64,000 bases of DNA from Cyanobacteria bacterium P01_F01_bin.150 (GCA_039189765.1 JBCCYL010000009.1:54984-118983), one strand, 5' to 3'; counted from the stretch's first letter, positions 15,730-44,652 are shown. Notes: a model not told the origin generated them from the letters alone. A program made the numbers and translations.

Positions 15730-18472
15730 TGGGCTTTCTCCGCAATACACGTAAAATATAAATCCAAACCAATACAGTGGGTAGGGTCCAGGGCAACAAA
15801 ACGCCTGCTGAAATATAAAGCTGAAGGCTGGCCAGACCAGATAGTCCCGTTAAACCAGTAAATCCCAGCGTTAAGCGACGCCGCTGAAGATGAGTCCATT
15901 GGGAGTGAGGATAAGCCACCTTAATCCACTGGGCCGTCACATAGCCAAAAAGTGCGGCGATCGCCACGACCCAACTATCCGGCACATGAATCACCTTACG
16001 CTGCGTCAAAAAATGGTGAACCATATAGGCATGAGCTTCGCCTTTGGGGAATGCTTCTTTGGTTCCAGATGGGAGAGGAGCGTTTGTAGTTGGATCGCTG
16101 ATTAGATGAGACACTGGCGGAAAGATAGAATACCAATGTTTTGTAGCGCTAGGCAACGGTTCATTATCCTTGGCCTCATCAATTCCCGCTTCTGTATATC
16201 CCCCTGGTACGATCATCACTGTCCGCCCCGATAAATCTAGTGACTGATCTAATACCGATTCATCTAATAAGGCCCAGGCTGGAATTCGGGCATACACCGC
16301 ATCTGGAGGAATAGAAAAATCTAATAGTTGGGCAAACCATGTCTGACCAAACTGTTTATTGCTCCATAACGTTAGTGGGTGAAAGCGCGATCGCTCTTGA
16401 ACGCGCTCTAAACGGTACAGAGCATTAACAGCTTCAGACGTTAACGATATATTTGGAACTTGAGCACTATCAACAGGTGGAGATAACTCCACCGTATTTA
16501 TAAACTGAGCGCGGAGATCGGCTTGATTACTGCGGCTAGGAGGCTTAATCTGTGCAGCAATATCTGGATCCTGAGTGGCTTGCTGCAAAAGCGATAACAG
16601 ATACGCAAATGGGCAGCGATTTAGGCGACAATCATCCCCAGGCGCTTGGAGGGTCATATATCCCATTAGGACATCAATATGAGCGCCCATCATCCATGAG
16701 GGCTGAGCAATTTCACTTTTTTGATTAACGCTGACTTCTTGTCCATCTTCACCAATAATAGACGCAAAAACCAACCACATTTCTTGATCAACCGCTTGAT
16801 TGACTGCCTCCTGTAAGCGCTGGTCCATTTTAGGATCATCAGCCGGACGATCAAGAAGATAATCGATGCCAATAATGGATGCTTTTTGTTGAGCTAACGT
16901 CTGGATTAAATCAGCAAGGTAACTGCGATCAATTGGGAATGGGTCTCCCATTCGCCGATCTTTCTTCAAAGATTCTTCGTCTACCTGCACCAGTACAACA
17001 GGGGGGGAATCTGTGGCCGGAACCTGGTGGGTAAGTTGGCGATAGATGGCTTGGGTGCGTAATCGCTGGTCAAGACCGATCGACTGAGCGCTGGGCAGTA
17101 AGCTGAGGCCGAGGCAGGCAGTGAGGGCGATCGCTTCATACCTTAAGGGAATTAGTGTTTTAAGCTTTTGTCTCAGTCCTCTTTTCGGAATTCGAAATAG
17201 GGTTGCATCAGGATGGCAAAAAAGCGAAGGAACTAAATTAGCAGAGGGATAGGTAAATTGCTGCTCTAGCTTGAGCCATTGACAGGCTGACTGCATGGCT
17301 TCTTGCACATCTAGATGATTCGCTAAGCTCTGCATAAATTTCCACAAGAAGGCTTGGGCAACCCGAGTATGGATTGGCTCCCGCATCACTACAACTTGGC
17401 TCAAGCCCAAATCCATCAAAAACTCGGCAATATCTAACCCATTACAGGAATTAAACAGCGCAAACTGTAGCCCCTTTTCCTTCGCAATTGATAAAGAGGG
17501 CGCTAACTCCTGCATAGTAATAGATGACCCTGGAGCAATGGCAAGCTGTCCGCCCATCAACTCTTTCTCATTACTGTGTCCGGCAAAAAGCAATAGATCC
17601 CAGCCATCATCATCGGCGATCGCCTTACAGACACGAATCTTTACCGCTTCTGGGGATTGATTTGGCTGCCAGCCCTCAAACGTGATATCCGCAATATTGG
17701 TTAAAGACTGAACCGCCTTTCGATCTTCGCGAAAATCTAAACCCGTGCTATCTCCTAAAATGATTAAGATTCGGGGACGACGATGACGACGATAGCGAAG
17801 GTGAGTCGCACCCGAAGCAGCATGAATTGTCAATGAACTACGAACAATCTGTACTGAATCTCTAGTGGCGAATTCGGCCCCTATTTCCCAAGTTTCCCAG
17901 GGAAAACGAGCCAGTTCAAGCGGATAACAGCTAAGAAAAAGGCGGGTTTCCATCGCCTGCTCAGGTAGTTGCTCCGTAGTCGGTTGCTTCTCTTGCTTTG
18001 GCAAATCTAGTGATGTTGTGCCCCGTGACTTTACTCCAGCAATAGTGGCACGGACTTCAAATAAGTCACTATGCCGTAACCAACGTTGAAATTCATAGGT
18101 TAAGGTCGTTTCTGCCTGGACTAAACGCTCATGCCAATCAGGTGGGGGAAGATTCACTGAACCCCCTGTGACTGCTTTTCCTCGCAAAGAGTTACTGGGT
18201 TTTGAGCTAGCACTATCCGTTACCAAAGAGTTTGGATCGGTAGCAAGAACCCTATCTTTAAGACGATCAGCACTCCGGAGTTCCATATCCGAAAGTTGCG
18301 AATAAAACGTAAGGTATTGTCGTTGCCAATCTTGATATCTTTTTTCCAGAACAGAGGGATAGGGCACACGCGCCATTATTTTCTGCCCTTGTCCCCAAGA
18401 CAGTTCAAATAAACAGACCGCCTCAACGCGTTGAACCTGTAGATAAAAGTGACGGGAAGATTGGGAAACCAT
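15722..18472 (-). CDS. CHAT-like + CHASE2 domain membrane protein
   Basis: FAGHS, FALFNSCNGLDIA, VVMREPI; VVLVQVDE..IDRSYLA..IGIDYLLD (CHASE2); C-terminal TMs. Confidence 0.85.
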   Translation of the reverse strand: MVSQSSRHFYLQVQRVEAVCLFELSWGQGQKIMARVPYPSVLEKRYQDWQRQYLTFYSQLSDMELRSADRLKDRVLATDPNSLVTDSASSKPSNSLRGKAVTGGSVNLPPPDWHERLVQAETTLTYEFQRWLRHSDLFEVRATIAGVKSRGTTSLDLPKQEKQPTTEQLPEQAMETRLFLSCYPLELARFPWETWEIGAEFATRDSVQIVRSSLTIHAASGATHLRYRRHRRPRILIILGDSTGLDFREDRKAVQSLTNIADITFEGWQPNQSPEAVKIRVCKAIADDDGWDLLLFAGHSNEKELMGGQLAIAPGSSITMQELAPSLSIAKEKGLQFALFNSCNGLDIAEFLMDLGLSQVVVMREPIHTRVAQAFLWKFMQSLANHLDVQEAMQSACQWLKLEQQFTYPSANLVPSLFCHPDATLFRIPKRGLRQKLKTLIPLRYEAIALTACLGLSLLPSAQSIGLDQRLRTQAIYRQLTHQVPATDSPPVVLVQVDEESLKKDRRMGDPFPIDRSYLADLIQTLAQQKASIIGIDYLLDRPADDPKMDQRLQEAVNQAVDQEMWLVFASIIGEDGQEVSVNQKSEIAQPSWMMGAHIDVLMGYMTLQAPGDDCRLNRCPFAYLLSLLQQATQDPDIAAQIKPPSRSNQADLRAQFINTVELSPPVDSAQVPNISLTSEAVNALYRLERVQERSRFHPLTLWSNKQFGQTWFAQLLDFSIPPDAVYARIPAWALLDESVLDQSLDLSGRTVMIVPGGYTEAGIDEAKDNEPLPSATKHWYSIFPPVSHLISDPTTNAPLPSGTKEAFPKGEAHAYMVHHFLTQRKVIHVPDSWVVAIAALFGYVTAQWIKVAYPHSQWTHLQRRRLTLGFTGLTGLSGLASLQLYISAGVLLPWTLPTVLVWIYILRVLRRKPNV

Positions 18473-18966
18473 ATCAAATTTAATACTATGGGGGATAAAA
18501 AATATGAAATACCGTTAGTATCCCACTCTGGTTGCGGATTGAATGTATCTCACCGTCCCACAGCTAGGATTCAGAGCTGATTTCATAGGCTGTTAATGAG
18601 CACACTTCGTTTTGCCCAACCGACACAAACATCAGGCCGTTGAGTTTGGGCAACTCTCACCTGCCTCCTTTCATTGTTATATGTCTCACCTGCTTCTAGC
18701 TATACAAATGACGGATTAAAATCCTGCCGACCCTTACCAAAATTGGCACACCCCATTGCGTTCGTTAAAAGGGCTGAAATTCCCATTTTTACGTTTATTA
18801 CTCCATTTCTTGCCTTGTAAAAGTGAACCACTCTGAAAAGTGAGCGAGTTGGTCCCCATGCGTTCAGACAGTTCTCCTACGGTAAAGACATCGGGTTCGT
18901 TGGCGAGTTATTTCTTCCCAACAGCCCAAACCTCCACCGTTGCACTGTCTTAATACCGAAATTGCT

Positions 18967-21030
18967 ATGTTGAATTCCACTCATGATCCGCTTTACCTTA
19001 CTTCTGACATCACAAAGGTAAACTTGAGCCCAGATTCCAAATCTTTTAGCGGCACTTTGGGCACTGATGATACACAACTCTATGCCTTTCAGACTAAAGA
19101 CCCCAGCAGCCTATATGCTGAAGTTGAAGGAGAAGAGGTCGTCGTTACCTTAGCAAAAGATATTAATCAGGACGGCATCATTAGCCGCGATGAAACTCTG
19201 GCTAACTCCCGCTCCCGCTCTACCTCCTTTTTCTCTGGCCAGGCGTCTGATACGACGATTCAAGGGCTAAATGCATCCAACTTATCCAGCGACACGTTTT
19301 ATCTACAGGTCTCTGGCTCTGGTGAGTACACTCTTTCGGCGTCCCTAAATGAGGCGATCGCCCCAACCTCCACCTCCACCTCCAGAAGCCGTAATGCATT
19401 CTCTAGTAGTGGGCAGCGCATCTCCAAAAAGAACTGGAATGCCAGCTTCCTCAATCTCTCCAGTCGTAGATTGAGGGACTACGACAGTTATGATTTTAGT
19501 AATGCCAACGCGGTCTATGATTTGGGCAGTCGCAATAAAAAAGGTCGCATTGCCGCCAGACTCGAATTCGACTTTGGCAATAGCAGCCCCGAGGGAGTCA
19601 ATTCCAGCAAGTTTGCCATGGAAGCCTGGACGCGGGTGCGCTTGGCCAGAGGAAAGTTCTATCGGCTTAACGCAGTTTCCGATGATGGCATTCGCTTCGA
19701 GTTTCGAGACAGAAAGACGGGCGAAGTGATTACAGAACTTGAGGGAGACTGGAGCGATCGCAGCCTCGACGATCCCGCCTATACCCAACTGCTGACTGCA
19801 CCCAAAGGCGGCAACTATGACTTCTATGTCCAGTATTACGATCGCCGGGGATACTCCGCCGCCGATGTCACCATAGAAAAAGCTAGACTCAGAGGCCAAG
19901 TCACCTCTTCGGCCCTTAATCTTCGTAACGGCCCCAGCACCGTCAATACGTCTACCATTGACACTTTGGCCCAGGGAGAAACCTTCCGCATCGTCAGACA
20001 GGTAACCTCTCCCACCGACTCTACCTATCGCAACTGGTACAGAGTTGTCACCAGTGACAAGCAAAAAGGCTTTATTGCTGCGGATTCAAGATTTATAGAT
20101 ATTACCAATGACACCACTGATGTGATCACGGTGGAAAATGCAGCCGATATTACTCCTCCCCCCTTATTTCCTGACAGCCCTACAGTTCCTGATAACGGCG
20201 GTGTAGACAGTGGCGCTGATTCCTCCAAAGGAATTATTAGCTCCAAAGTCTGGATTACCTCCGATGACAAAATTGCATTCCGTAATGACAAAAGCATTTC
20301 CGGTACCCAGCTTGCACGCTTGCCTGAGGGCACCCCTGTGACGATTTTGAGCGAAGAAGTGGGTGGACGCTACTTAAATGATTTCGACCTCTGGTACAAA
20401 ATTCAGGCAAACGTTGGGGGCGTCACTCAAGAGGGATATGTCGCCGCATACTATGTAGAGCGTACTACTTTTAACGGCACCTACGGCACATCAATTTCCA
20501 AAAGTAATGGCTCCTACGCTCATCATATTGATGAAGCCACCAACGCTCGCTTTGACCCCAAAAACTCCAGCTACCGCCCCTTAATCGAAGACGCGGCCAG
20601 CAGATATGACTGGCTAGCGCCATCAGTGGTGGCAGGCATTGGCTCCCGAGAATCTGCCTGGGGTCGCTTCCTTAGCCCCCAAGGGCCAACCGGAACAGGA
20701 GATGGCGGCCACGGTCGCGGTCTAATGCAAATTGACGATCGCTTCCACCAAAGCTTTATCAACTCCGGCCAGTGGACCGACGCCAAAGCTAATATCAACT
20801 ACGGCATCGACAATGTGTTGAGCGACTACTACGACTACTTGGATATCAGCACCAATCTAGAAGGCAAGGATTTATTGAGAGGCGCGATCGCCGCCTACAA
20901 CGCTGGTCCCCAGAGCGTCCTTAACGCCATTAACCAAAACCTGGATATTGACTACTACACCACCGGACAGGACTACTCCTGGGATGTATTAAATCGGGCA
21001 GGCTGGTTCCAATCCCACGGCTGGGCGTAA
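18967..21030 (+). CDS. Multidomain cell-wall hydrolase: PPC-like + PA14 + 2 SH3b + goose-type lysozyme/SLT
   Basis: SDDGIR (PA14), LNLRNGPST (SH3b), GIGSRES, GRGLMQID, IAAYNAG. Confidence 0.8.
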   Translation: MLNSTHDPLYLTSDITKVNLSPDSKSFSGTLGTDDTQLYAFQTKDPSSLYAEVEGEEVVVTLAKDINQDGIISRDETLANSRSRSTSFFSGQASDTTIQGLNASNLSSDTFYLQVSGSGEYTLSASLNEAIAPTSTSTSRSRNAFSSSGQRISKKNWNASFLNLSSRRLRDYDSYDFSNANAVYDLGSRNKKGRIAARLEFDFGNSSPEGVNSSKFAMEAWTRVRLARGKFYRLNAVSDDGIRFEFRDRKTGEVITELEGDWSDRSLDDPAYTQLLTAPKGGNYDFYVQYYDRRGYSAADVTIEKARLRGQVTSSALNLRNGPSTVNTSTIDTLAQGETFRIVRQVTSPTDSTYRNWYRVVTSDKQKGFIAADSRFIDITNDTTDVITVENAADITPPPLFPDSPTVPDNGGVDSGADSSKGIISSKVWITSDDKIAFRNDKSISGTQLARLPEGTPVTILSEEVGGRYLNDFDLWYKIQANVGGVTQEGYVAAYYVERTTFNGTYGTSISKSNGSYAHHIDEATNARFDPKNSSYRPLIEDAASRYDWLAPSVVAGIGSRESAWGRFLSPQGPTGTGDGGHGRGLMQIDDRFHQSFINSGQWTDAKANINYGIDNVLSDYYDYLDISTNLEGKDLLRGAIAAYNAGPQSVLNAINQNLDIDYYTTGQDYSWDVLNRAGWFQSHGWA

Positions 21031-21110
21031 TTTGAATTTTGGATTTTAGATTTTAGATTTTGGACGGGTAAAAATTAAATCCAAAATCTAAAATCCAAAA
21101 TCTAAAATCT
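21031..21110. repeat. Inverted heptamer tandem repeats (STRR type) between convergent genes
   Basis: (ATTTTRG)n followed by (YAAAATC)n, forming a long imperfect hairpin. Confidence 0.8.
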
Positions 21111-21112
21111 GT

Positions 21113-22138
21113 TTATCCATTCCGACTCAACGCCGTGATCATTGCCTGCTGGCTGACCGACTGGTAAACCGTATCCAAATATTGACGAACGGTTTGGGCA
21201 TCATTGGGAGCCAGGGGCATTTTTCCTAATACGTCCAGTACGGTTTGGGCGGAGCCGGGGGGAGTGATTACCACTAGGGAAGGATCTAAGGGTTCGTTGT
21301 ATTGCCAGAAGGCTTGGGGATCAAAATTGTCCATGTCCAACTCTGGAGATGGGTCGGGACCGGATTCTTGACGATGCTCTTCCTGAGCGTCTACGCGATC
21401 GCCTTTTGAGGATATTTCACTTGAATTTGATTCAGTCGTAACGGTAACGGATGGTGTCTCAGTTGATTCTGGGACGCCATTTTTTTCTGAGTTGTCGTTC
21501 GCAGTATCTTCAGCAATATCTTTGCTATCTTTAGATGCTGCATCGGGTAATGAGGTCAATAGGGGCGACCCTCCACTACGCTTTTGGCGTACCGCTTCCA
21601 AAATCTGACTTTTGGAACGGCCCCGGAGTTCAAATAGGACAAACGGATCTTCTCTAAAAAAGTCCCCTAGCTGGTAGTAAACTGCGGCAATATGCTTACA
21701 GGGATTTTTGGGATCGGGGCAGTTGCAGCGCGATCGCACTTCCGCTAGCTTAAACGGGAATAGGCTGAGGCCATTGGCGGTAAAGACAGCTTCAATATCA
21801 TCGGGCATTGTCCCAGCTAGCAGCTTAGCGGAATAAATCGCTTTTTCGGCAATGCTGCCTATGACATAATCCCAATCCTCGTCACTAAAGCGTTCGATGG
21901 AAATCTGAAGTTTATAAGGTTCATCTGCGGTGCCCTGTACCGTGGCGTAGACCTTCCCCTTCCGGAACTCCATATGCAGGATATTGCCTTCACGGGCATA
22001 GATCCGCCCACGCTCTAACCGTTTTTTGAAGCGATAGGTATTGAGCAAGTCAACCCAGCGTTGGACCCACCATTCCTGTTCAATGGTTTCCCCTGTGGCT
22101 TGTACCGCCTCATTAGCGGCAGGCATCTGTGCAGTCAT
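21113..22138 (-). CDS. SWIM zinc-finger protein
   Basis: RLERGRIYAREG, CNCPDPKNPCKHIAAVYY, DPFVLFELRG. Confidence 0.9.
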   Translation of the reverse strand: MTAQMPAANEAVQATGETIEQEWWVQRWVDLLNTYRFKKRLERGRIYAREGNILHMEFRKGKVYATVQGTADEPYKLQISIERFSDEDWDYVIGSIAEKAIYSAKLLAGTMPDDIEAVFTANGLSLFPFKLAEVRSRCNCPDPKNPCKHIAAVYYQLGDFFREDPFVLFELRGRSKSQILEAVRQKRSGGSPLLTSLPDAASKDSKDIAEDTANDNSEKNGVPESTETPSVTVTTESNSSEISSKGDRVDAQEEHRQESGPDPSPELDMDNFDPQAFWQYNEPLDPSLVVITPPGSAQTVLDVLGKMPLAPNDAQTVRQYLDTVYQSVSQQAMITALSRNG

Positions 22139-22461
22139 AAATTCACGCAGTTCAAAACATCTTTTTATCTTAATTCTTTGGATTGACCTTCAAGCTTAAA
22201 GAAATATAACCGACAAACGATCTTAATACTTCTAGGGTGACAACTTTAGGTAGATGCTTTGCTCCCACACACCGCTTCATTGAAATAAATCAAGTTGTGA
22301 TAATATCTGGCAAGTAATTTCTTGTTGGGAGAAATATGGCCCAGCAAAATGTTTGATAAATTAGGGCTGCTTGATTTGTCTGAAGCCAGGAAGAATTTAA
22401 CGAAATCCTGGGACACAAACCTCCCCAGTATTCTGTCTCAAAACACAAGCTAATAAATTTA

Positions 22462-23208
22462 ATGCCAATTAATCCTTTAGCCAAATCAAAAAACATCGCG
22501 TTATGGACTTGCCCTAGAAGTCGTTCAACCTTGGTAACCAGAGCATTTGAACAACTAGATGAGGGAATTATTTTTGATGAGCCTTTCTGTGCTCCCTATA
22601 TACTGCACCATGGGTTTAATCAGCCTCACCGACAAGAGTTGTTAGCATTTTATAAAAACGATCACGATTACATCAAAGTGATTGAGAAAATTACGGGTGA
22701 TCTACCACCTGGAGCGTCTTTTTCTTTTCAAAAACATATGTCTAAACATGTTCTACCGGACTTTGGTAAGGAATGGATGCAAGATCTTCACCATGTCTTT
22801 TTAATTCGGGATCCAAAGGAAATTGTCTTATCTTGGCATAAAGTCTGTGGAGACGTGACAGCCCATGATATTGGGATGGAAGTGCACTACCAAATATTTA
22901 AGTATGTTCAATCATTTAGTCAACATACTCCATTAGTCCTTGACTCAATTGATTTAGTGAGAAATCCTGAGGCGTTTCTTCGTCTAATCTGTTCACACTT
23001 TAATCTGAATTTTTCCAGTAGAATGTTGACCTGGAAAGCAGGTCTGAAAGACTCTAATCTGTTGTTTTCTGGCGCTTTATCCTCATTGGCTTCAACTTGG
23101 TATGAGGATGTTGCAAACTCCACTGGCTTTCTGCCTTATCAAGAGAAGGAGATTTCTCTAACTGATAATCTAAAACGTCTGGCAGAAGATTGTTTCCCCT
23201 TCTATTAA
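22462..23208 (+). CDS. Sulfotransferase-like protein (P-loop), probably slightly truncated
   Basis: ALWTCPRSRST, DEPF, FQKHMSKH, FLIRDPKE, ML.W; reading frame appears to continue past the TAA. Confidence 0.75.
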   Translation: MPINPLAKSKNIALWTCPRSRSTLVTRAFEQLDEGIIFDEPFCAPYILHHGFNQPHRQELLAFYKNDHDYIKVIEKITGDLPPGASFSFQKHMSKHVLPDFGKEWMQDLHHVFLIRDPKEIVLSWHKVCGDVTAHDIGMEVHYQIFKYVQSFSQHTPLVLDSIDLVRNPEAFLRLICSHFNLNFSSRMLTWKAGLKDSNLLFSGALSSLASTWYEDVANSTGFLPYQEKEISLTDNLKRLAEDCFPFY

Positions 23209-23297
23209 GAACTCTACCATTATCGTCATATATTTGAATAATAGTGAAGGGACAACCTCTACGAGATTGCCCCCTCATCACAAAGCCGATGCAATAA

Positions 23298-23834
23298 TTA
23301 GGATTCTTGAGCAGCGCTTCCAGGCTGAATCAGATTCCTGACCCTGTTTTGACCGCCTTGATAAATGCGACGGACTCGATCGCCCCACTTGGCCCGATTT
23401 TGTTCGGCTTTTTGGGGAAACCAGGAAAAGATCGCCAAGTCTAGCATCAGCTCAGCCATGCGAGTCACGATCAGTAGCACTCCTGCCAGTAATCGGTAGC
23501 GAATTAAATAGTAGGGCGTAAAGGCAAAGGCGGAGAGCTGAAGAAAATTATCAAATAGTTCTTTATCCAGGTTAAACGAGACGCTGACATGCACCCGCAT
23601 TAGGCTGTACCAAAGGGAAAAGACCACCAAAGTACTGACGACAAAGCCAATAAAGCCTTCCACTTTGTCCCAGGTAAACTTTAGAAAACGCTTGAAGGAA
23701 AGCCAGAGGGTACCACCAATGGCGATCGCCACGGTGCCGTAGGTAGCAACGTCAGCCCAGTCCAGTTCGCTTAGGTCTCCTAAGCTGGTCAAATCAAACT
23801 GCTGTAGCCAATCCAGTAAAAACGAGTCCCACAT
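23298..23834 (-). CDS. Hypothetical membrane protein
   Basis: 178-aa ATG ORF with 3-4 hydrophobic segments. Confidence 0.6.
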   Translation of the reverse strand: MWDSFLLDWLQQFDLTSLGDLSELDWADVATYGTVAIAIGGTLWLSFKRFLKFTWDKVEGFIGFVVSTLVVFSLWYSLMRVHVSVSFNLDKELFDNFLQLSAFAFTPYYLIRYRLLAGVLLIVTRMAELMLDLAIFSWFPQKAEQNRAKWGDRVRRIYQGGQNRVRNLIQPGSAAQES

Positions 23835-24144
23835 TTTTTAATCACTCCTTAACAAATCCATGTGGCAATTCTGCAAGACATGGATATAAGCGTTAATGGC
23901 CTTGATATCCCTCGTCTCACACCAATAGACTAACGTGATGCTATTGGTGCTGTAGAGTACGGATTGTGCCATTGCCAGCCGATATCGCCCTTGATGACCA
24001 AGCCTTTTTACCGGGCCGCAAACGCTTAGCAGTCGTTCCTTAAGCCCCAAAAATCATGCATTTAAAAGTGCAATAATTCGGGTAGGGATAACCGCAGAGT
24101 CTGAGCGTTAGTTCCAAATTGCTCACCATTCCTTCCATTCACCA

Positions 24145-24177
24145 GCGATCGCTCTCACTATTCCACTCAGCGATCGC
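24145..24177 (+). repeat. HIP1 mini-array 1
   Basis: Two GCGATCGC copies 25 nt apart with a C/A-rich spacer. Confidence 0.6.
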
Positions 24178-24234
24178 CCTCTACCCCCAAAGACACAGTA
24201 CCATTTAGGTGGGTGTATTGATTGTTTTTCGCTT

Positions 24235-24325
24235 ATGCCAACGTTATTGAGAGTCGGTCCATATCGTTTTTTCTGCTATGCTGGTGACCCTGCTGGAGAG
24301 TTGGCATGACTTCTTCAATGATTGA
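24235..24325 (+). pseudogene. DUF4160 family toxin-like gene, internally deleted
   Basis: MPTLLRVGPYRFFCYAGD joined out of frame to LLESWHDFFND*, the two ends of a DUF4160 protein. Confidence 0.75.
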
Positions 24326-24614
24326 TCGGATTGATACTCAAATAGTGAAGTTAGTAACAGTAACAGTAACTGATGAGTTTCTAACTGTTGATGTAATGGA
24401 TGGACGGGTTATTTCTGCACCTTTGACCTGGTATCCTCGCCTGCTTAATGCATCTCAGGCAGAAAGAGAGAACTGGCGGCTAACAGGTGGAAAAACTGGC
24501 ATTCATTGGCCTGACTTGGATGAGGATATTAGCATCCGGAATATTATTCTGGGTCAGCCATCTGGAGAAAGTCAAAAGTCACTCCAACGTTGGCTCAAAA
24601 GTAGAATGCAGTAG
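24306..24614 (+). CDS. DUF2442 family protein (putative antitoxin)
   Basis: DGRVISAPLTWYPRLLNAS..ERENW, GIHWPDLDEDISI. Confidence 0.9.
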   Translation: MTSSMIDRIDTQIVKLVTVTVTDEFLTVDVMDGRVISAPLTWYPRLLNASQAERENWRLTGGKTGIHWPDLDEDISIRNIILGQPSGESQKSLQRWLKSRMQ

Positions 24615-24621
24615 TTTTTGA

Positions 24622-24800
24622 GCGATCGCCCCTCTCATCATAACTTGCGACAACGCGATCGCCCCCAAATTCCACAACAGCGATCGCCTCCAAATTCCAC
24701 AACAGCGATCGCCCTCACAATCCCAAACAGCGATCGATCCCACCACTCCACTAAAAAGCGATCGCCATTACAACCTAAAATCCCCACAATCAGCGATCGC
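24622..24800 (+). repeat. HIP1-anchored repeat/spacer array 2
   Basis: 6 perfect + 1 degenerate GCGATCGC every ~25-35 nt, G-poor spacers. Confidence 0.85.
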
Positions 24801-24834
24801 ATACAATTACTCTGGTGCTCTACTCTGGCTTGGG

Positions 24835-25134
24835 ATGGCGATACGTAATTTTCAGAACAAGGCAACGGAAGATATCAACTATGGAGTAGTTTCAAAAATT
24901 GCGCTGAAGCTCCTTCCTCAAGAGTTGCATCGAAAGGCGCGAATTAAATTAGCGAGATTAGGTGCTGCCACTTCGATTCAGGATTTGCGAGAATTGAAAG
25001 GAAATCGGCTTGAAGCACTGAAAGGGGACAGAAAGGGACAATATAGTATCAGAATTAATGATCAGTATCGGATTTGTTTTAAGTGGAAGCAAGATTATCC
25101 ATACGATGTTGAGATTGTTGATTATCACGATTAG
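24835..25134 (+). CDS. higB: HigB (RelE/ParE superfamily) toxin
   Basis: GNRLEALKGDRKGQYSIRINDQYRICFKW...VEIVDYH. Confidence 0.9.
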   Translation: MAIRNFQNKATEDINYGVVSKIALKLLPQELHRKARIKLARLGAATSIQDLRELKGNRLEALKGDRKGQYSIRINDQYRICFKWKQDYPYDVEIVDYHD

Positions 25135-25149
25135 AGTGGAGATAAGTTC

Positions 25150-25437
25150 ATGACCATACAACATGTTACGTCAATTCATCCTGGAGAGGTTTTACAAGAC
25201 GAGTTAGAGGAACTAGATATTTCACCCGAAATCTTAGCCGAGCACATCAAAGTTCCCATAACGAATATTTTGGATATCTGTAGTGGTCAAAAGGATATTG
25301 ATGCAACGCTTGCCATTAAGCTTTCACGCGCATTAGGAGCTAGTCCTCTGTTTTGGCTTAATCTTCAAAACAATTGGGAATTAAGTCAAATTGATGAGTC
25401 CGCTTACCAGGATATTAAACCTGTCGTAGCTGCTTGA
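25150..25437 (+). CDS. higA: HigA antitoxin (HTH)
   Basis: IHPGEVL..EL, AIKLSRALGAS..FWLNLQ. Confidence 0.9.
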   Translation: MTIQHVTSIHPGEVLQDELEELDISPEILAEHIKVPITNILDICSGQKDIDATLAIKLSRALGASPLFWLNLQNNWELSQIDESAYQDIKPVVAA

Positions 25438-25438
25438 C

Positions 25439-25670
25439 GCGATCGCCCCTAAAAATCTCACCAACGAGCGATCGCCTCCACAAAGTCCATCAACCAGCGA
25501 TTGCCCTCAAAACTCCACAAGTCAGCGATCGCCCTTCACCAATCCACCAACCAGCGACGCCCCTCCCATCATAACTGGCAACAAAGCGATCGCGTTCCAG
25601 CACCAGGAGCGATCGCTTTCCAAACTCCACAACAGCAGTCGATCCCACCACTCCACGAAAAAGCGATCGC
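25439..25670 (+). repeat. HIP1-anchored repeat/spacer array 3
   Basis: 6 perfect + 3 degenerate GCGATCGC; some spacers shared with arrays 2 and 4. Confidence 0.85.
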
Positions 25671-25696
25671 ATTTCTGACTCTCTACATTCCTAGGA

Positions 25697-26023
25697 TCAG
25701 GCACTCTTCTTTGTTGCCGTCTCTTTTTGAAGAAGAAAATCAAGGTATTCTTCGAGTTGAAGAAGTCTAGGTTCTGATAGCTGTCCTAACTTGTCTAGAA
25801 TTGCTTGCTGCTGTTGCCATTGTTGCAGGGGCATGATTTGTGATGCTGCAACTTCTACAGTGACATTAGGAACGTCAAACCCTTCTAGGCTATAGCCATC
25901 TTCCTCATTTTCAGGCATGGCGTAATATTCCACGACTGTGGCACGATCGCCTCTCTTGAGACGATATTCGGGAATATCTTCGGCCAGGGCAACTTTGGAA
26001 AACAGAGGGTGTTGGCTGCTCAT
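25697..26023 (-). CDS. DUF4926 family protein with C-terminal DUF2281-like helix
   Basis: KVALAEDIPEYRLKRGDRATVVEY, EDGYSLE; C-term LLQLEEYLDFLLQK; ATG overlaps the upstream stop. Confidence 0.75.
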   Translation of the reverse strand: MSSQHPLFSKVALAEDIPEYRLKRGDRATVVEYYAMPENEEDGYSLEGFDVPNVTVEVAASQIMPLQQWQQQQAILDKLGQLSEPRLLQLEEYLDFLLQKETATKKSA

Positions 26024-26352
26024 AAATTTTCTCCTTTGTCTGGCACTAGGGTAACAAATCTGGTCACTGTGGGAGTCACCATCCAGATCGTTTTGATGTT
26101 TAGTTCTACTCCATTTTCTCCTACCAGAGTGGCTCGGATGCAATATTTCTGTCCGTATTTGTTGGTTTCAAGCAGTTCGGCAGGTTGAGATAAGACTTGA
26201 GTTTGTAAGTCTTCTTCTAGCTTTTCCCAGTTATCAAGCGTGTAACCTGCTTTTGCCAGAAATTTAGATTTGTCATCTTTAGGTAAGGGAATCAGTAAAT
26301 ACTGGGTTAGTTTTGCTTCTGGAATTGCTGCGTCTGGGGGAAGAAAAGCCAT
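26020..26352 (-). CDS. DUF6883 family protein (putative RNase-fold toxin)
   Basis: AAIPEAKLTQYLL, DKSKFL..AGY, YGQKY, TIW...RFVTLVP. Confidence 0.75.
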   Translation of the reverse strand: MAFLPPDAAIPEAKLTQYLLIPLPKDDKSKFLAKAGYTLDNWEKLEEDLQTQVLSQPAELLETNKYGQKYCIRATLVGENGVELNIKTIWMVTPTVTRFVTLVPDKGENL

Positions 26353-26395
26353 CGATGCACCAAACGAGAATTACTTCTATTGTAATTTAAGTTTT

Positions 26396-26667
26396 GCGAT
26401 CGCTCCCTTCTCTTGTGGCCACTCCACCAGCCTGCGATCGCCCCTCTCACCATAACTTGCGACAAAGCGATCGCATTCCTCATCACTACAAGCGATCGCC
26501 ACTACCAAGTCATCAGTCAGCGATCGCTCCCTAATCTGCACACATAGCGACCGCTTTTTGTCCCCCTAATAAACAGCAAGCGATCCTCACAACTCTACAC
26601 ACTGCGATCGCCTACCAAAACTCCATAAGGGTGTTCGCTCTCCATAATACCCACAATCAGCGATCGC
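26396..26667 (+). repeat. HIP1-anchored repeat/spacer array 4
   Basis: 7 perfect + ~3 degenerate GCGATCGC, G-poor spacers. Confidence 0.85.
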
Positions 26668-26701
26668 TCTCCACAAATCTATAACAACGAGAACTGTCTG
26701 A

Positions 26702-28234
26702 TTATGCTATTTCCAAATGTGTTAAAGGCGACATCATTTGACGACAATACAAAGAGTGACACAGTTGATTTTTTTCATCAAACCAAATGACGCCAATTTT
26801 TCTATCTAAACACATATATTCTTGTAACCATGAAACCACAGTTGGTTCATTAGGAAAAACAAGACACAATATTACGTCATAGCCTATGATATGTTGATAC
26901 CTGAAACGATACTCATATAGTTGACTAATTCCTTTTCGAGATTGACTTAGGAGATTATCTCTCGTCGTACTTTTGACCTCAAAAATGAATTTCTCTCCGT
27001 TAGAAGGTAATTGAGCAAAAAGATCAATATGTTCATTTTCGGTTGACTCAACACCACGTTCTTTAAGATAAGAATAGAGCTTCTCCAGAATTATCTTGTG
27101 ATTCAGATTTGCTCTTTGCCGCTTAATTCTAGTGATTTCTGGGTCAGCATAAACTGGCTTCTTCAATTTTTTATTTTGAGGATTAGACTCCTCAAATTTT
27201 AGAGGCTTAAACTCGTATATACTCTCTGATTTCTGAATTTCTATTTGATTATCAGAGGAAATATCAAGACCTTGAAGCTCAGTATAAATTTTAGGATCTT
27301 CATTTGTCAGGATTTCAACCGATTCTGCACTTAGTGTTTTGATACCGTCAAAATAATCACCCCAGGAACAAATCCTGACCTCATCTAACAGATCATCAGA
27401 GCTTGATGCCTTATCAAATCCCCGAAACTCAGTTTGTATAGCACTAATTGCATTTAATTTAGCTTCAAGCTGGCGTCTATCGGATTGACTAACATATCTT
27501 CTAAGTCTAATTGCATCACGATCAGAAACCAACAAATTAGTATGCTTTAGAATATGAAAACGACTCTCATATTTCTGAGGCGGAAATAAAGTACCGTTAC
27601 GAGACTTTTCTAGTACACAAATCACATCATCTAAATTTGGATTAGCACGACTATTTGTTCTAGGATGGTTGGCTAGAATAAAAACTTCTGACCGAGATAA
27701 AGCTGCATTAAAGAGGCTAACATCTCGCAAGAAAGAGTCAGCCTGAATACCTTTGCATATAAGCCTTAAGGGGGATAAATGTATATTATTTTTGACAAAT
27801 TCTAAAGTTCTGTCACGTGTGTTAGATTGTATCCTTACATTATTAGAATTTGTTTGATAAGCAATACCCATGCCGTTTGGATACTGAAATAGTGTAAGTT
27901 GAAGTACCATAAAGGATGATACATTTGGCTCTTCGCAAACTAAAAATCGCCTGGTGGTTTCGCTAATAAATATATGCCAGATTCCATCTTTAAGTGCAAC
28001 TCTGTATAGCCCTAAATACGCAGGGTAAGCACTTATCTCATCTCTAAATTTAGAAGGATCTCTTGCGACCTTAGATGCTCTTGGACTGATTTTTGACAAA
28101 CGAGCTTCGATTGCTTTTCGGTCGTAAGGTTTTCCATCAAATTCGGAAAATATAGTCGCAATATCAATCAGCTTATCCGACCAGTCGTCACCACTTGAAT
28201 GAATTTTATGACTAAATAGATCTTTTATTTCCAT
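26702..28234 (-). CDS. Putative restriction endonuclease (C-terminal PD-(D/E)XK)
   Basis: HIDLF...IFEVKS...GISQLYEY; AT-rich; overlaps the MTase 3' end. Confidence 0.65.
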   Translation of the reverse strand: MEIKDLFSHKIHSSGDDWSDKLIDIATIFSEFDGKPYDRKAIEARLSKISPRASKVARDPSKFRDEISAYPAYLGLYRVALKDGIWHIFISETTRRFLVCEEPNVSSFMVLQLTLFQYPNGMGIAYQTNSNNVRIQSNTRDRTLEFVKNNIHLSPLRLICKGIQADSFLRDVSLFNAALSRSEVFILANHPRTNSRANPNLDDVICVLEKSRNGTLFPPQKYESRFHILKHTNLLVSDRDAIRLRRYVSQSDRRQLEAKLNAISAIQTEFRGFDKASSSDDLLDEVRICSWGDYFDGIKTLSAESVEILTNEDPKIYTELQGLDISSDNQIEIQKSESIYEFKPLKFEESNPQNKKLKKPVYADPEITRIKRQRANLNHKIILEKLYSYLKERGVESTENEHIDLFAQLPSNGEKFIFEVKSTTRDNLLSQSRKGISQLYEYRFRYQHIIGYDVILCLVFPNEPTVVSWLQEYMCLDRKIGVIWFDEKNQLCHSLYCRQMMSPLTHLEIA

Positions 28235-29339
28235 TACTTAAAAAATTGAGTTCTAGGATTTTAATTAACTCATCAATGCTTGGTTTTGCTTCTGTATTAA
28301 AAATATTCTGCGAAACATATCTCGCTAAAATACCCGCAAATAGTGGTGGAACCGCATTGCCAACCTGACGAATTACATGTCTCCCAGTCCCATGAAAATC
28401 CCACCAATCAGGGAATGTTTGAATACGAGCGCTTTCTCGTGGAGTCACTTCTCGTGGGTCATAGGGATGGACATGTCCTTTCCCTCCACCTGCATCAGAA
28501 CCAACAATAATTGTAAAGCTTGGTCTATCTGGATTTAATTTATTTATTCTCGTTTTTGGATCTCTTTCTCCATAGGATAAGGAATGATAACGCTCAACAA
28601 TTCTTTCACTGTGCTTGCGTCCCACATGTCCATTGAGCGGCGGTTTTTTTTTCCAATCAGTGATGGGTTTAGGTAAACCGGATAGTGCAGACTGAACAGT
28701 ATTAAATGGCCGACAATCATTCAATAATGATTTTTGCTCTCCAAAAATTTCTTTTTTTACTTCTGAATGAGTTGAAAACATTTTTGGAACTTTCTTGCCA
28801 GAGCGAGTTCCAATAAAGAATAGTCTTCGTCTAAATTGAGGCACACCAAACTCAGCTAGCTCATATTCATGGTCTGAGATGGTATATTCTCCGCTCAAAG
28901 ATAAAGTCTTAAGAAGTTCCTGATATAGGTTGCCATTGTGGATAGTTTTCAACCCAGTCACATTCTCAAAGATAAATGCTTCAGGCTTTATCTCGTTAAT
29001 TATTCGGGCGTATTCGAATACCAAACCACCACGAGGATCTTCTAATCCCTTTCTTCGACCAAAAATAGAGAATGCCTGACACGGAGGACCACCAATAATG
29101 AAATCGATGTTGCAGTGACCGATCTCATTCTTGACACTTTGTTGTGATAGCTGCCGCACGTCCTGACATAAAACCGGATGCTTGTTGAGATAAGGCTTCT
29201 TCTCTTGGTTTTGCTCTAGTGTTTTACATGAGAACGAGTCTATATCAGATGATAAAACTAAATGAAAACCAGCAGCAGAAAAACCTAAGTCAAGGCCACC
29301 GCCACCAGAAAACAACCCTAGTGTGTTGATTTGTGTCAT
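28212..29339 (-). CDS. C5 DNA cytosine methyltransferase
   Basis: LFSGGGG, GGPPCQAFS, FENV, PQFRRR, RESARIQTFPD, QVGNAVPP. Confidence 0.95.
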   Translation of the reverse strand: MTQINTLGLFSGGGGLDLGFSAAGFHLVLSSDIDSFSCKTLEQNQEKKPYLNKHPVLCQDVRQLSQQSVKNEIGHCNIDFIIGGPPCQAFSIFGRRKGLEDPRGGLVFEYARIINEIKPEAFIFENVTGLKTIHNGNLYQELLKTLSLSGEYTISDHEYELAEFGVPQFRRRLFFIGTRSGKKVPKMFSTHSEVKKEIFGEQKSLLNDCRPFNTVQSALSGLPKPITDWKKKPPLNGHVGRKHSERIVERYHSLSYGERDPKTRINKLNPDRPSFTIIVGSDAGGGKGHVHPYDPREVTPRESARIQTFPDWWDFHGTGRHVIRQVGNAVPPLFAGILARYVSQNIFNTEAKPSIDELIKILELNFLSNGNKRSI

Positions 29340-29796
29340 CTATCAACGTCCAAACAATCATTAAGCTGGGTGAATGAGAATTAACAGTTGATGATGTAAC
29401 TCCCACTTTAAGAACTATAGTACCAGCTCTAGCTACTGCTGATATTGCTACATATCTAGCGTTCTCCTCAAACGCATCGGAGAGGCTATCGGTTAACGCC
29501 TTTTGAATATGGTACAGCACTCGCTCATAATAGAGGGGCATCACCTTAACAAACTAGAATACTATGTTTTTCCAAAACTCTAAGATATTCGCAGCACGGA
29601 AGCTACCCGTATACGCCCGGTGACTCCACAGCAGCTCTTACGCTTCGTGGACGTCTTCGGGAATGCCTTCTACCACGGTGCTGATGTTGGAATGGGTAGA
29701 TGTGATCGCCATTCCAAACAAATTAACTTCGAATGACGATAAACGGTTAGTAACCAGTCCCAGTGGCCCTGCATCCAAGAGAATTACTCGACTCAC
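29340..29796 (-). pseudogene. Decayed PIN-domain (VapC-like) toxin
   Basis: GTG coupled to upstream TGA; MSRVILLDAGPLGLVTN, IPEDVHEA*ELL; in-frame stops at 29640-29638 and 29556-29554. Confidence 0.7.
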
Positions 29797-30503
29797 CAGC
29801 TAACCCCTTTCATTGACGAGGGAAAGAGTTTTCGCTCCGAAGAACGGTTTTTATCGAGTGCATGGACAAGAAATTCCCCTGTTTCGCATTGTTCAGGATC
29901 ATCCTCATCCAACCAGCTTTGCAACAACTGCACGCCTTCAATTGCTGAAGCCGATACTTGAGGGGTTGAAGCTACCTGCTGTTGAGCCTCAGAAGATAAG
30001 GATTGAGTCCCAGACTCTGTTGCAGCAAGCCGCATTTCTCTCAATGCATTCAATAAATAGTCAAGGTACTGTTCAAATGAATCCGCACTCTCTCCTTCGA
30101 TGCCGTGATGAAGCTTGATATATTCCAATGCAACGACTGCACAATCTACGTCTAACTCTAATGCTTGATACGTTTCCTTCAGTCTTGATAGAGCATAGTC
30201 ATCAAGGGGGGCAGAGCTATCCGTAACTAAACAGTAGCTTATTAGCCTTAGGAAGAAAGTAATGTCTCGATAACAACATGCGCTGTGACGTGTATCCAAG
30301 GCATAGCTGGGAAAATGCATGTAAACAGCTTGAGACGCTTTCTGAGCTAAAGAGTCTGAACATCTTGCTAATTGCTGTGCCGCATCTAGTCTTACAGATG
30401 CCTTGTGGAAACCATGCCAAACACTTTGCATCTCAGAGTTATTTAAAAAACGAGCTTGATCATGAGCATCAGCACAGATAGCGTTTATGGTACTAATATT
30501 CAT
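29793..30503 (-). CDS. Phycocyanin-alpha-like globin domain fused to a PIN-associated antitoxin
   Basis: DQARFL..E, AVYMHFP, CCYRDITFFLRLISYCLV, ALEYIKLHHG, YLDYLLNAL; C-term LLQSWLDEDDPEQCETGEFL...RKLFP..KGVSW. Confidence 0.75.
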   Translation of the reverse strand: MNISTINAICADAHDQARFLNNSEMQSVWHGFHKASVRLDAAQQLARCSDSLAQKASQAVYMHFPSYALDTRHSACCYRDITFFLRLISYCLVTDSSAPLDDYALSRLKETYQALELDVDCAVVALEYIKLHHGIEGESADSFEQYLDYLLNALREMRLAATESGTQSLSSEAQQQVASTPQVSASAIEGVQLLQSWLDEDDPEQCETGEFLVHALDKNRSSERKLFPSSMKGVSW

Positions 30504-31182
30504 ATTTTCCTATTTCCTTCAACACTAACCAGCAATATCAGAATCAATGCATGTTGTTTGTAAATGAATTTATGAGGTCGTCTTCCTTGTTTTAACATCT
30601 TCCTTTTCCTTGGAGCTATTCAAAACCCCACCGACCTAGTAAGGCTTGTCCTGGCTGACTCCGGCCTTGGCTACCGTTACCGCGCCGTAGACCGATAGCT
30701 GATGCTGACGGAGCAGTTGGGCAATAGGCCATGCATAGGCAGGCAAGAATGCGATCGCCATTCCTAATTACTCAGAAATCCACAAAATTCTGACCTTTTC
30801 CTGACTCCTCAGCCTTCAGTGGCCTATTTCTGCCAAATAACGTTAAATACCAGGCAAGTCTGGAGCTTGACTCTGAACAAGAATCAGCCTATGTTCGTTT
30901 TTATGGCGATCGCAACGCTGCATCGGTAATTTACATCCAAGTGACTTACCGTATCAGCCCCTTGCCGTCGCTCTGGCTCAGAACTCAGGAGACTTAGCGC
31001 CATCGGCGGGTGCAGCGAACACCACACCGATGACTACACCCCAAAAACTGTTCGAGGCAGTTCGGAGGTATGGGTTGATTATCGCCCAGCTACCCCGATT
31101 TGTACCACAGGTTGCGGAGTGGCTGAGTGATTTTGGGTTCTGGTCTCTATCCATTGATGTTTATATCTGGAGACCAGAAAAC

Positions 31183-31548
31183 ATGTCTCAACCCTTTGAA
31201 CCGGGCGTATTTACGCCCACAGTTTGTGATGAAAATTATCCTGGAAACTACCCTGGAAACTACCCTGCATATTACGCAGGCAATTACCTGACAAACTACA
31301 CCACAAGCTATATTGCGAATTATGCAGCAAACACCGTGGCAGTAAGTGCAACGATGTCGTCATCGTCGCCGCCCCACTACGAACCCGTGCGCCATATGCT
31401 CTTTGGCAGCATCGCCGCAGTCCAGAACACGATCAAACTGCTGTACGTCCTTAACTACGCCGAACCCAATGATTGGAGTCATCCTGTTCCGTCAGGCCAA
31501 CCCGGTGAAGTCGTCGTCGTCTTAACTAAAAAAGTTCGTATCGGCTAA
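31183..31548 (+). CDS. Conserved cyanobacterial hypothetical protein with N-terminal NYxx repeats
   Basis: EPVRHMLFGS..AVQNTIKLL..LNYAEPNDWS.P.P...GEV; ATG 31183 follows GGAG. Confidence 0.65.
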   Translation: MSQPFEPGVFTPTVCDENYPGNYPGNYPAYYAGNYLTNYTTSYIANYAANTVAVSATMSSSSPPHYEPVRHMLFGSIAAVQNTIKLLYVLNYAEPNDWSHPVPSGQPGEVVVVLTKKVRIG

Positions 31549-31593
31549 CTAGTAATAGGCGGCAGAAGTTCTGCCCCATTAATTCTGGTAATT

Positions 31594-31643
31594 CTGGTTC
31601 CCAGACTCCGGCTGGGAACCACACTTGGAGACTCTGGCTCCAG
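31594..31643. repeat. Cyanobacterial REP-like double hairpin
   Basis: ggttcccagactccggctgggaacc + tggagactctggctcca. Confidence 0.6.
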
Positions 31644-31694
31644 GTGTGTTTAAATTCAGCTAGTTATGCTACCCTAGTGGGGTTGTCAAAAAAT

Positions 31695-31780
31695 CGCACA
31701 CCCAGACTTTCGGGTGTTTTCGTGAATTGTTGTTTAACCACTTCATCACGAAAATGCACCTGGGTGGAGGCATAACCCGA
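31695..31780 (+). promoter_or_regulatory. rpsB leader (t44 RNA, S2 autoregulatory element)
   Basis: CACAC...GGGTG...stem ttttcgtg/cacgaaaa...GTGGAGGCATAACCC directly upstream of rpsB. Confidence 0.8.
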
Positions 31781-43016: not shown

Positions 43017-43280
43017 CATATGGAGAATTTGGGATGCGCAGTTGTACGCCCTAAATTCTCATGCACTCACGTACTTTGCTAAGCGTGACTGACTTATAAA
43101 CATTTAACGGTGTTGTTCAGCGCTCCGTGTCGAACAACATCGCATCGAAACATACACCTCATGACTTCTGCAAGTAGAGATAAAAATTAATAGATATTGC
43201 GGATACCAAGTTTAAAATCCTGTATATAGCTATCGAGAATAGAGAGCTATTTTGTATCTTTGTTGAGAGGTAGGTTTGGT

Positions 43281-43757
43281 ATGCTCAGTCAGTGTGAAGA
43301 TTTGAGTCAATCAACAGAAGGCCGCTATGCGACTGATGCTGAATTAGATTTTTTTCTTGAATATGTAGAATCATATCCAAAACGATTGAGCCTCTATCAA
43401 AAACTTCAGACTGTTGAATCGGACATTGTGGAGACGGTCCACCAGCGAATAATGGCTGATCATCCCCATCTGCTAAAAAATAATAAACGCGACATTACCG
43501 TCAAATGGAAACGCGACACGGTGCGAACGCTACGGGTGTCAGCGGTGGCTATTTTGCTAGATGATCCGACAACATTACAGGAACGCTATCTATTATGGTT
43601 CCAAAGCGTTATGGGAGCATTTAAAGCCCAGAAAAGTTGTGATATAACCTACTCCATCATGCAAGAGGTGGTTCATCATTTTCTAGAACCAGATGAAAGC
43701 AGTTTATTAATTCCTATTCTAGAGCTAAATCGCACGGCTTTAGGTATGAATACTTAG
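43281..43757 (+). CDS. Phycobilisome-family (globin-fold) protein, bilin Cys replaced by Trp
   Basis: EGRYATDAEL, KWKRDTVRTLR, LLWFQSVM. Confidence 0.75.
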   Translation: MLSQCEDLSQSTEGRYATDAELDFFLEYVESYPKRLSLYQKLQTVESDIVETVHQRIMADHPHLLKNNKRDITVKWKRDTVRTLRVSAVAILLDDPTTLQERYLLWFQSVMGAFKAQKSCDITYSIMQEVVHHFLEPDESSLLIPILELNRTALGMNT

Positions 43758-43968
43758 TTTTTTGTCAGGCAATCAACGAGGAGAAATAGCCCACCAGATT
43801 CTTCTCTCACAATAAAACTGGCATAGTACTCATAATTTCTGTAAATAAAGGCTTACATCCTGCGAGTGGTGTAAGCATGATATAGGGAATACTGAATTAT
43901 GGTTAAGACCATTTCAGGGAGCAACGGCAGATTCGCCCACTCATTTATCCATCACTCCATTTAGTTTT

Positions 43969-44652
43969 ATGGTCACTCTTATCGGTAATCAGCAACCGCT
44001 TAGGGAAAAGTACCCTAAGAAGCATAATCACTATAGCTTTCGCGATTTCTTCCAATTCAACCCCCATGCAGGCACCCTTGAAGACTGGAATAATAGTCGC
44101 AATGCTTTAGTCAGTGAGGACTTTATTATTGGCCTAATTGAAGGATTGGAAGAAGAAGTAGGAGAGGCCTCTGCCGCCACAATGTACACCATTGGGAACC
44201 ACTGGGGCCGCATTGATGCAGACTTCTTTAATAAATGGTTTCAGAAGGAATATGGCACAAATATTCGACAAACAAATCTAATGTTTTTGCTGGAAACCTG
44301 GTGGTGGCCCTTCACTGCTCAGGGCTGGGGGCGATGGGAAGTTGATATGGGCGATCGCAAGCAGGGATTCATGTTTATTAATTTATTTGACTCTGCCGTT
44401 GCCCGAACATTGGGAGATGTGGGCAAACCCGTCTGTTTCTTATATGCGGGACTATACGCTGGCTTTTTTTCTGAGATGGTCAAGAAAAAGCTGAGCTGTA
44501 TTGAAATTCAGTGCTACTCCATGGGGGAAACCTATTGCAAGTTTCTCCTCGGGGGGCAAGATCGTCTTGATGCCGCAGGGTTCTGGATGAATGAAGGTGC
44601 AACAGCACGAGATATTGAAAAGCGGTTACGCGGAGGTGAACGCTTAGGATGA
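43969..44652 (+). CDS. V4R domain protein (slr0144-like)
   Basis: KKHNHY, QGWGRW, KPVCFLYAG, CIEIQCYSMGETYCKF. Confidence 0.85.
   Translation: MVTLIGNQQPLREKYPKKHNHYSFRDFFQFNPHAGTLEDWNNSRNALVSEDFIIGLIEGLEEEVGEASAATMYTIGNHWGRIDADFFNKWFQKEYGTNIRQTNLMFLLETWWWPFTAQGWGRWEVDMGDRKQGFMFINLFDSAVARTLGDVGKPVCFLYAGLYAGFFSEMVKKKLSCIEIQCYSMGETYCKFLLGGQDRLDAAGFWMNEGATARDIEKRLRGGERLG

Follow-up and report, generated by a model that had tools for sequence, protein, structure and literature searches.

The window analysed here, 64,000 nucleotides (nt) of Cyanobacteria bacterium P01_F01_bin.150 (GCA_039189765.1 JBCCYL010000009.1:54984-118983), contains on its minus strand an ATG-initiated open reading frame (ORF), 29793..30503, that encodes a 236-aa fusion protein, as an earlier sequence-only reading had claimed. 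The protein is probably a chimeric type II antitoxin, composed of a CpcA-like phycobiliprotein (PBP) domain and the toxin-binding half of an antitoxin of PIN-domain toxins, and it belongs to a recurrent class of alpha- and beta-type PBP domains equipped with the partner-binding tails of two-gene modules. Its parts were as follows.

29793..30503, minus strand: complete fusion ORF (236 aa, with its stop codon), sharing 80% identity over its length with P0158, a protein of another assembly
30039..30503, minus strand: residues 1-155, a CpcA-like phycobiliprotein domain in which the B-E loop is short (PF00502, CpcA chains in the PDB, AlphaFold2 model)
30273..30278, minus strand: Cys76-Cys77 pair (alignment to 2bv8_A and 5ook_A), kept in P0158
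29946..30038, minus strand: linker, residues 156-186, of low model confidence and weakly conserved (model confidence, identity to P0158)
29796..29945, minus strand: putative antitoxin tail, residues 187-236, toxin-binding half of a VapB-like antitoxin (homology, interface model)

The phycobiliprotein domain

Residues 1-155, read earlier as following CpcA, belonged by score to the phycobiliprotein family PF00502, which was matched over residues 11-154 (E 5e-33; 114.7 bits versus a Pfam cut-off of 22.2), and the closest solved structures were C-phycocyanin alpha chains, such as 2bv8_A (E 1.4e-29). The top NCBIfam model was that of CpcA (TIGR01338, 115.8 bits), the equivalog cut-off of which, 269.45, was not reached. 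In alignments with 2bv8_A and 5ook_A, Cys77, the second Cys of 'ACCYRDI', fell on the bilin-binding Cys84 of CpcA, thereby bearing out the proposed Cys at the alpha-84 position within a Cys-Cys pair, and Arg79 and Asp80 fell on Arg86 and Asp87 ('CCYRDI' versus 'KCARDI'). A gap of 8 residues relative to CpcA removed part of the loop preceding the Cys84 position, and Trp128 and Tyr129 of CpcA were substituted. The segment 'LKETYQAL', which had been described as beta-type, was located at residues 108-115 and has the counterparts LRETYVAL and LQETYIAL in beta-type relatives.

The AlphaFold2 (AF2) model of the fusion, with a mean predicted local distance difference test (pLDDT) of 86.6, was all-helical over residues 3-172. 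Values of 93-98 were obtained for most of the domain and 76-82 in blocks covering residues 101-120; they fell to about 55 near linker residues 171-180, and the tail formed two helices, at residues 185-199 and 203-219, with a pLDDT of about 75.

The antitoxin tail and its modelled interface

The last 50 aa of the fusion matched 98 of 401 cyanobacterial genomes sampled (E <= 0.01, this genome counted), the best matches being 56-70% identical and lying within open frames of about 100 aa. The matched proteins were about 94 aa long and shared their C-terminal half with the fusion, while their N-terminal third showed weak FitA-like ribbon-helix-helix (RHH) and RelB-like matches. Among antitoxin columns conserved at 90% or more, the fusion retained 25 of the 32 in the C-half and just 3 of the 21 in the N-half, in place of which it carries PF00502; therefore, the phycobiliprotein domain has taken over the position of the RHH domain. 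The antitoxin of locus L009 aligned with the fusion from about residue 162 onward (48% over 77 aa), which suggests that the junction lies near antitoxin codon 18, and the linker is possibly a decayed middle part of the antitoxin. One further protein, P0016 (281 aa), consists of three tandem copies of the tail motif.

At 20 of 29 related loci (L006-L034), the antitoxin gene ran through a TGGTGA overlap into an ORF of 148-151 aa. This partner scored 23.5 bits against the Pfam PIN model, with a cut-off of 23.6; no NCBIfam match was found for the family, and its profile recovered 0 solved relatives by sequence at E <= 0.01. Its structure model resembled VapC (3zvk_B, E 1.4e-6, template-modelling scores 0.72/0.81). 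Thus, the claim of an antitoxin tail was upheld, in that some 50 C-terminal residues match the C-halves of antitoxins of ~94 aa, which are encoded ahead of VapC-like PIN ORFs.

Modelling of tail residues 176-236 with the PIN protein of L009 gave an ipSAE interface score of 0.86, versus 0.00 for the best of three controls; among solved complexes, 116 of 157 reach this value, and among mismatched pairs, 2 of 215 do. The runs agreed in at least 98% of contacts, with a partner pLDDT of at least 84. The modelled interface with this homologous PIN involved fusion residues 183-236 and touched PIN residues 8-10, 100-110, and 129-131, including its invariant acidic residues. The model supports a likeness to antitoxin-toxin complexes, rather than binding by this particular copy.

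A recurrent class of phycobiliprotein fusions

A word-indexed protein search with the whole fusion returned no match beyond the protein itself, while an exhaustive protein search gave 260 matches at E <= 1e-3. Among the best 150 of these 260, many were short-loop CpcA-like proteins of 200-250 aa with differing C-terminal tails, and about two dozen clusters (50% identity) combined a PBP domain with a C-terminal extension of at least 40 aa. Three tail classes were traced through the 401-genome sample. Fusions to PBP domains detectable by these tails occurred in 6 of the 401 genomes, this one counted, the other five being of beta type.

Tail class 1 (P0006, P0011, P0067) was present in 106 of the 401 genomes, mostly in proteins of 90-105 aa with varied N-termini, overlapped by PIN genes of about 136 aa (L112, L113, L116, L121), and was borne by beta-type PBP domains in four genomes (L107, L108, L109, L111). 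At L108 (G150:C85, 1082-2705), a CpeS-like lyase gene (E 2e-35), a 203-aa fusion (PF00502, 1.1e-40), and an intact 139-aa PIN gene (5.3e-11) lie on one strand; L111 (G277:C37, 1085-2712) has the same lyase neighbour and the same one-strand arrangement. At L107, a 200-aa fusion is accompanied by an intact 137-aa PIN. The search for the same fusion beside an intact PIN, proposed earlier as a check, thus succeeded at L107 and L108, where the design recurs with a beta-type domain. A pentapeptide-repeat gene stands beside the lyase-fusion-PIN row of L108 and L111.

Tail class 2 (P0002, P0019, P0032, P0040, P0041) was found in 25 of the 401 genomes, its stand-alone proteins being 75-90 aa long and multi-copy in some genomes; where the loci could be read, they were usually followed by a retropepsin-like protease of about 133 aa (PF13650, E 2.6e-12). 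At L095 (G383:C17, 818-2154), a module of about 70 aa of this class was inserted before the last helix of a beta-type PBP, and the next gene encodes a retropepsin-like aspartic protease. Tail class 3 (P0004, P0005, P0028) had one match in 351 genomes, on a non-PBP N-terminus.

A quick tree of the class required at least four gains or losses of C-terminal extensions, which occurred in alpha-like, beta-like, and Apc-like clades. The Cys-x-Arg-Asp motif was kept in the fusion, P0158, and L108.

Several related arrangements were also observed. P0076 is a beta-type PBP with an inserted module of about 70 aa, as at L095. Widespread at L076-L105 (e.g., L078, 1097-1722) is a 75-90-aa protein gene that overlaps a clan-AA aspartic protease gene of about 133 aa; the three small partners that were scanned had no Pfam match, and the pair is multi-copy (9 matches in G245, 6 in G325) and looks like a toxin-antitoxin-style module. 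Other domain combinations were PIN_3 with PBP in P0070 (284 aa), PBP with an S8-type peptidase in P0013/P0161 (715 aa), and pentapeptide repeats with PBP in P0141.

Conservation of the gene

P0158 (NET09644.1, 237 aa, encoded on a contig of 5,384 bases) was identical to the fusion at 189 of 237 positions (80%), with one single-codon indel. Identity was 83% in the domain and 84% in the tail versus 55% in the linker, as would be predicted for constraint acting on both domains. In run X1, which may be the source data, a contig of 8,839 bases covered 28800-30693 with zero differences. Run X2, from another study, yielded two contigs of about 82-85% nucleotide identity, with 23 differences in 129 bases at 29745-29873 and 38 differences in 253 bases at 30114-30366. 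The tail differences listed from X2 were, in the analyst's translation, six synonymous changes and one Ser to Leu change matching the residue of P0158. Beyond 29745, the loose end of one X2 contig continued the PIN frame as P-N-R-A-E-Q-S-Q-E-C, resembling the canonical PKLSAESVAC; on this thin evidence, the PIN of the X2 relative seems to continue where the one described below fails. No relative was found in scans of genome contigs, metagenome contigs, and viral contigs, and plasmid tblastn gave 9 records, none of them a fusion. Searches of the own genome gave neither a paralogue of the tail or PIN stump nor a homologue of the other fusion tails. The fusion is shown to be an inherited, conserved gene and no artefact, P0158 having the same design from end to end.

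The truncated toxin gene

A PIN gene start translationally coupled to the end of the fusion had also been claimed. The GTGA coupling was confirmed at 29793-29796, whereas a usable toxin was not found, only about 17-24 codons of it being left. The features concerned were as follows.

29793..29796, minus strand: GTGA overlap of the fusion stop and the GTG start of the PIN stump; the TGGTGA junction is shared by 20 of 29 related loci
29638..29796, minus strand: stump of a PIN (VapC-like) toxin gene, 52-aa ORF, of which about the first 17-24 codons are recognisable
28212..29339, minus strand: C5 cytosine DNA methylase gene, downstream neighbour (PF00145, E 1.7e-66)

The first 17 codons of the stump were canonical (VSRVILLDAGPLGLVTN), and a profile built from 21 intact PINs matched it at positions 2-24 only, in any frame of 29250-29800. 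Pfam gave no match in the 52-aa ORF, which holds just the first strand of the PIN fold with the first Asp, short of a complete fold. Faint PIN-like strings seen by eye after the stump, 'ELL' and 'ILEF', were not supported by the 21-PIN profile search. The space of the missing remainder is occupied by the upstream region of the C5 methylase gene. Because the loss is abrupt after perfectly conserved codons, a recent deletion or replacement is suggested to have truncated the PIN gene. With the PIN reduced to a stump, this copy cannot release a toxin, so the toxin release envisaged earlier fails at this locus, and the fusion here is an orphan antitoxin. Such an orphan could be a remnant being lost, or a decoy against incoming PINs.

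Proposed mechanism and alternative explanations

In the proposed arrangement, the CpcA-derived domain would take the place of the RHH DNA-binding domain of a VapB-like antitoxin, and a flexible linker would connect it to the antitoxin's C-terminal helices, which, by homology and by the interface model, are predicted to fold around a VapC-type PIN nuclease and close over its acidic pocket. The PBP fold would then serve as a handle in place of a DNA-binding or dimerising domain, rather than as a DNA-binding autoregulator, and might tie the stability or location of the antitoxin to the phycobiliprotein machinery. Candidate routes for such a handle are pairing with a beta subunit and NblA/Clp-dependent breakdown.

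The earlier suggestion that a light-harvesting fold was recruited onto an antitoxin as a light or bilin sensor survived in part: the fusion, P0158, L107, and L108 agree with recruitment as an N-terminal module, whereas light or bilin status as the common function was not borne out, the Cys often being missing. This loss of the bilin Cys across the class argues against such sensing as a shared role and in favour of one played by the fold as such, and a role in protein recognition would fit the class better, because the residue is missing in several members. Members that keep Cys-x-Arg-Asp, among them the fusion, P0158, and L108 with its lyase neighbour, may still be chromophorylated.

An extension of the proposed mechanism, for which we see some chance although we consider it unlikely, is that PBP-domain antitoxins guard phycobilisome breakdown, either as NblA/Clp substrates or as subunits docked on the antenna. 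Starvation or a cyanophage-encoded NblA would trigger degradation of the antenna and, with it, destruction of the antitoxin; the freed PIN nuclease or retropepsin-like protease would then cause dormancy or abortive infection, and what remains in the window would be such a system disarmed, or else an anti-addiction decoy. Phycobiliproteins are seen as antenna pigments and as little else; in the present data, their fold recurs as the N-terminal module of toxin-antitoxin-like proteins, with at least two unrelated tail types that have known partners (PIN nucleases and retropepsin-like proteases) and, at L108 and L111, with a dedicated CpeS-type lyase gene adjoining the fusion. If true, this would be a cyanobacteria-specific wiring of a growth-arrest or defence effector to the light-harvesting state, and a testable link from toxin-antitoxin modules to NblA-driven chlorosis and to cyanophage infection. 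The window copy is degenerate, its toxin being lost, and is of value as a pointer to operons that are still intact, L108 and L107 among them.

Several observations weigh against the assignment of the fusion as a chimeric antitoxin. At the locus itself, tblastn found no remainder of the PIN gene anywhere in the 10.6-Mb assembly, and in the absence of a toxin partner no toxin-antitoxin function can operate there. Neither Pfam nor NCBIfam matched the fusion tail, and no orthologue was found when the remaining 16 genomes of its family and order were searched. The PIN in the interface model came from a different organism, the alignments were the analyst's own, and VapBC complexes are well represented at fold level among solved structures; the X2 evidence consists of two short contigs at a depth of 2-4. 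Within the class, the PIN of L109 is shortened to 85 aa, the L111 fusion is broken by a TGA, no toxin context was found near the tail class 3 match in the 351 genomes, and the bilin Cys is not conserved (absent in P0015, P0019, P0032, P0040, L107, and L109). The tree leaves a single or a multiple origin of the alpha-type fusions undecided.

As an alternative, the gene would be an accidental relic: loss of the intervening DNA brought a stray cpcA paralogue up against what was left of a dying VapBC locus, the frame through the linker being due to chance and the tail functionless. The truncated PIN, the loss of the antitoxin N-half (3 of 21 conserved columns kept), the lack of an orthologue in 16 related genomes, and the location in a variable island with synteny unlike that of a same-genus genome are all consistent with it. 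Such a relic would, however, hardly be expected to have a full-length, 80%-identical counterpart in P0158 with one in-frame indel, a tail (84%) conserved like the globin domain (83%) on either side of a 55% linker, mostly synonymous differences among those listed from X2, and 25 of 32 conserved tail positions kept, and independent PBP-tail fusions adjoin intact toxins; we therefore regard this explanation as improbable.

We consider it improbable, too, that the protein is mainly a bilin-binding phycobiliprotein without a light-harvesting role, photoreceptor-like or phycobilisome-associated, whose tail would have nothing to do with a toxin and would serve only for oligomerisation or docking. 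Both orthologues have the residues equivalent to Cys84, Arg86, and Asp87, a CpeS-type lyase gene adjoins the L108 and L111 fusions, and there is precedent for non-antenna paralogues of phycobiliproteins in the BBAGs (PMC10151467). Against these stand the PIN-binding antitoxin residues kept in the tail, which were modelled onto the PIN pocket, the persistence of the GTGA-coupled PIN start, the intact PINs of relatives, and the missing Cys in many class members. An assembly chimera with halves from different molecules, which had been named earlier, together with uniqueness to this assembly, as grounds for refutation, has a negligible chance: the assembly is of metagenome type (350 contigs, 10.6 Mb, 4.7% contamination), but the separately built X1 contig, possibly source data itself, spans the junction unchanged, and P0158 of another assembly has the same architecture.

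Comparison with known systems

The chimeric antitoxin proposed here shares several features with VapBC modules, such as VapBC2 of Rickettsia felis (PDB 3zvk) and FitAB (2bsq). The PIN gene is coupled to an upstream antitoxin, the C-terminal helices of which are predicted to bind the toxin; the partner family is predicted to fold like VapC, and stand-alone relatives of the tail have a weak FitA-like RHH N-terminus. It differs in having a 155-aa phycobiliprotein domain for the DNA-binding domain and a toxin truncated at the locus, and curated cut-offs are missed by the tail as well as by the PIN family (PIN, 23.5 versus 23.6). CpcA is the nearest family of the other half, with which it shares the globin-like fold with X and Y helices and the residues Cys84, Arg86, and Asp87. 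However, identity is about 40%, the score is below that of an equivalog, the loop deletion and the replacement of Trp128/Tyr129 set it apart, and it has an 81-aa C-terminal extension and no cpcB partner gene or rod operon. Thus, the fusion is VapB-like in its tail and CpcA-like in its head and fails defining tests of both families: it misses the equivalog score and operon context expected of CpcA, and of VapB it lacks the DNA-binding domain as well as an intact toxin.

Antitoxins are known in which the N-terminal domain has been swapped, as are toxin-antitoxin defence systems that bear a sensor, such as Panacea-domain antitoxins and CapRel. As in such systems, one conserved toxin-binding tail, that of tail class 1, was seen here behind several N-terminal domains (L112, L113, L116, L121). 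AplA is a non-antenna phycobiliprotein paralogue, comparable to the domain of the fusion in having this fold outside the phycobilisome operons.

The literature searched (without subscription journals and bioRxiv supplements) contained no description of phycobiliprotein-antitoxin fusions, nor was the phycobiliprotein fold named there as a swapped antitoxin N-terminal domain; within that literature, the phycobiliprotein-headed antitoxin was not found described and is taken as a variant of type II toxin-antitoxin systems. BBAGs (PMC10151467) are likewise phycobiliprotein-fold proteins outside phycobilisome operons, but they are stand-alone globins in V4R/Fe-S clusters. The accessible text of that source draws no toxin-antitoxin link ('toxin' occurs 0 times), and 'phycobili' occurs 0 times in that of PMC5499597.

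Within the window itself, PF00502 is matched by two divergent genes at 43260-46304 on the plus strand (E 4e-16 and 2e-9); behind each is a V4R-domain gene, and a Ser/Thr-kinase-like ORF comes next at 46340-48511. These genes (43260-48511) resemble the BBAG/V4R cluster reported in PMC10151467.

Genomic neighbourhood

The fusion gene lies outside any cpcBA rod operon and is flanked by the C5 DNA methylase and toxin-antitoxin genes; the canonical alpha/beta phycobiliprotein gene pairs of the genome sit on contigs C16, C67, C259, and C107. With the methylase, HigB/HTH genes, and DUF pairs around it, the location far from cpc genes and in toxin-antitoxin-like surroundings was as the sequence-only reading had described. 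Its neighbours are the methylase and a 510-aa ORF without a known family; the latter overlaps the methylase gene (26702-29339, minus strand), has no Pfam or NCBIfam match, and may be the restriction partner of the methylase. Adjoining the methylase, at 24306-26352, is a row of toxin-antitoxin-like genes, namely a DUF2442 gene, a HigB-like toxin with an HTH_3 partner, and a DUF4926/DUF6883 pair. A scan of the fusion locus for promoters and terminators gave signals no higher than shuffled controls.

Compared with a same-genus genome (L136, G191:C71), the window region at about 14000-31700 had a different synteny upstream of rpsB, and the fusion is therefore placed in a variable island. L136 has NUDIX-prmA-serA-petCA upstream of rpsB, a block that the own genome carries on contig C28.

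Just upstream of the fusion gene, at 30773-31250, is a repeated element with raised X1 depth and at least 7 further copies in the own genome (83-91% identity), covering the start of a 172-aa ORF (31030-31548) that has no family match. Farther away, at 10980-18472 on the minus strand, are genes for two proteins, one of 1040 aa with a TPS secretion domain, the other a CHAT/CHASE2 protein of 916 aa.
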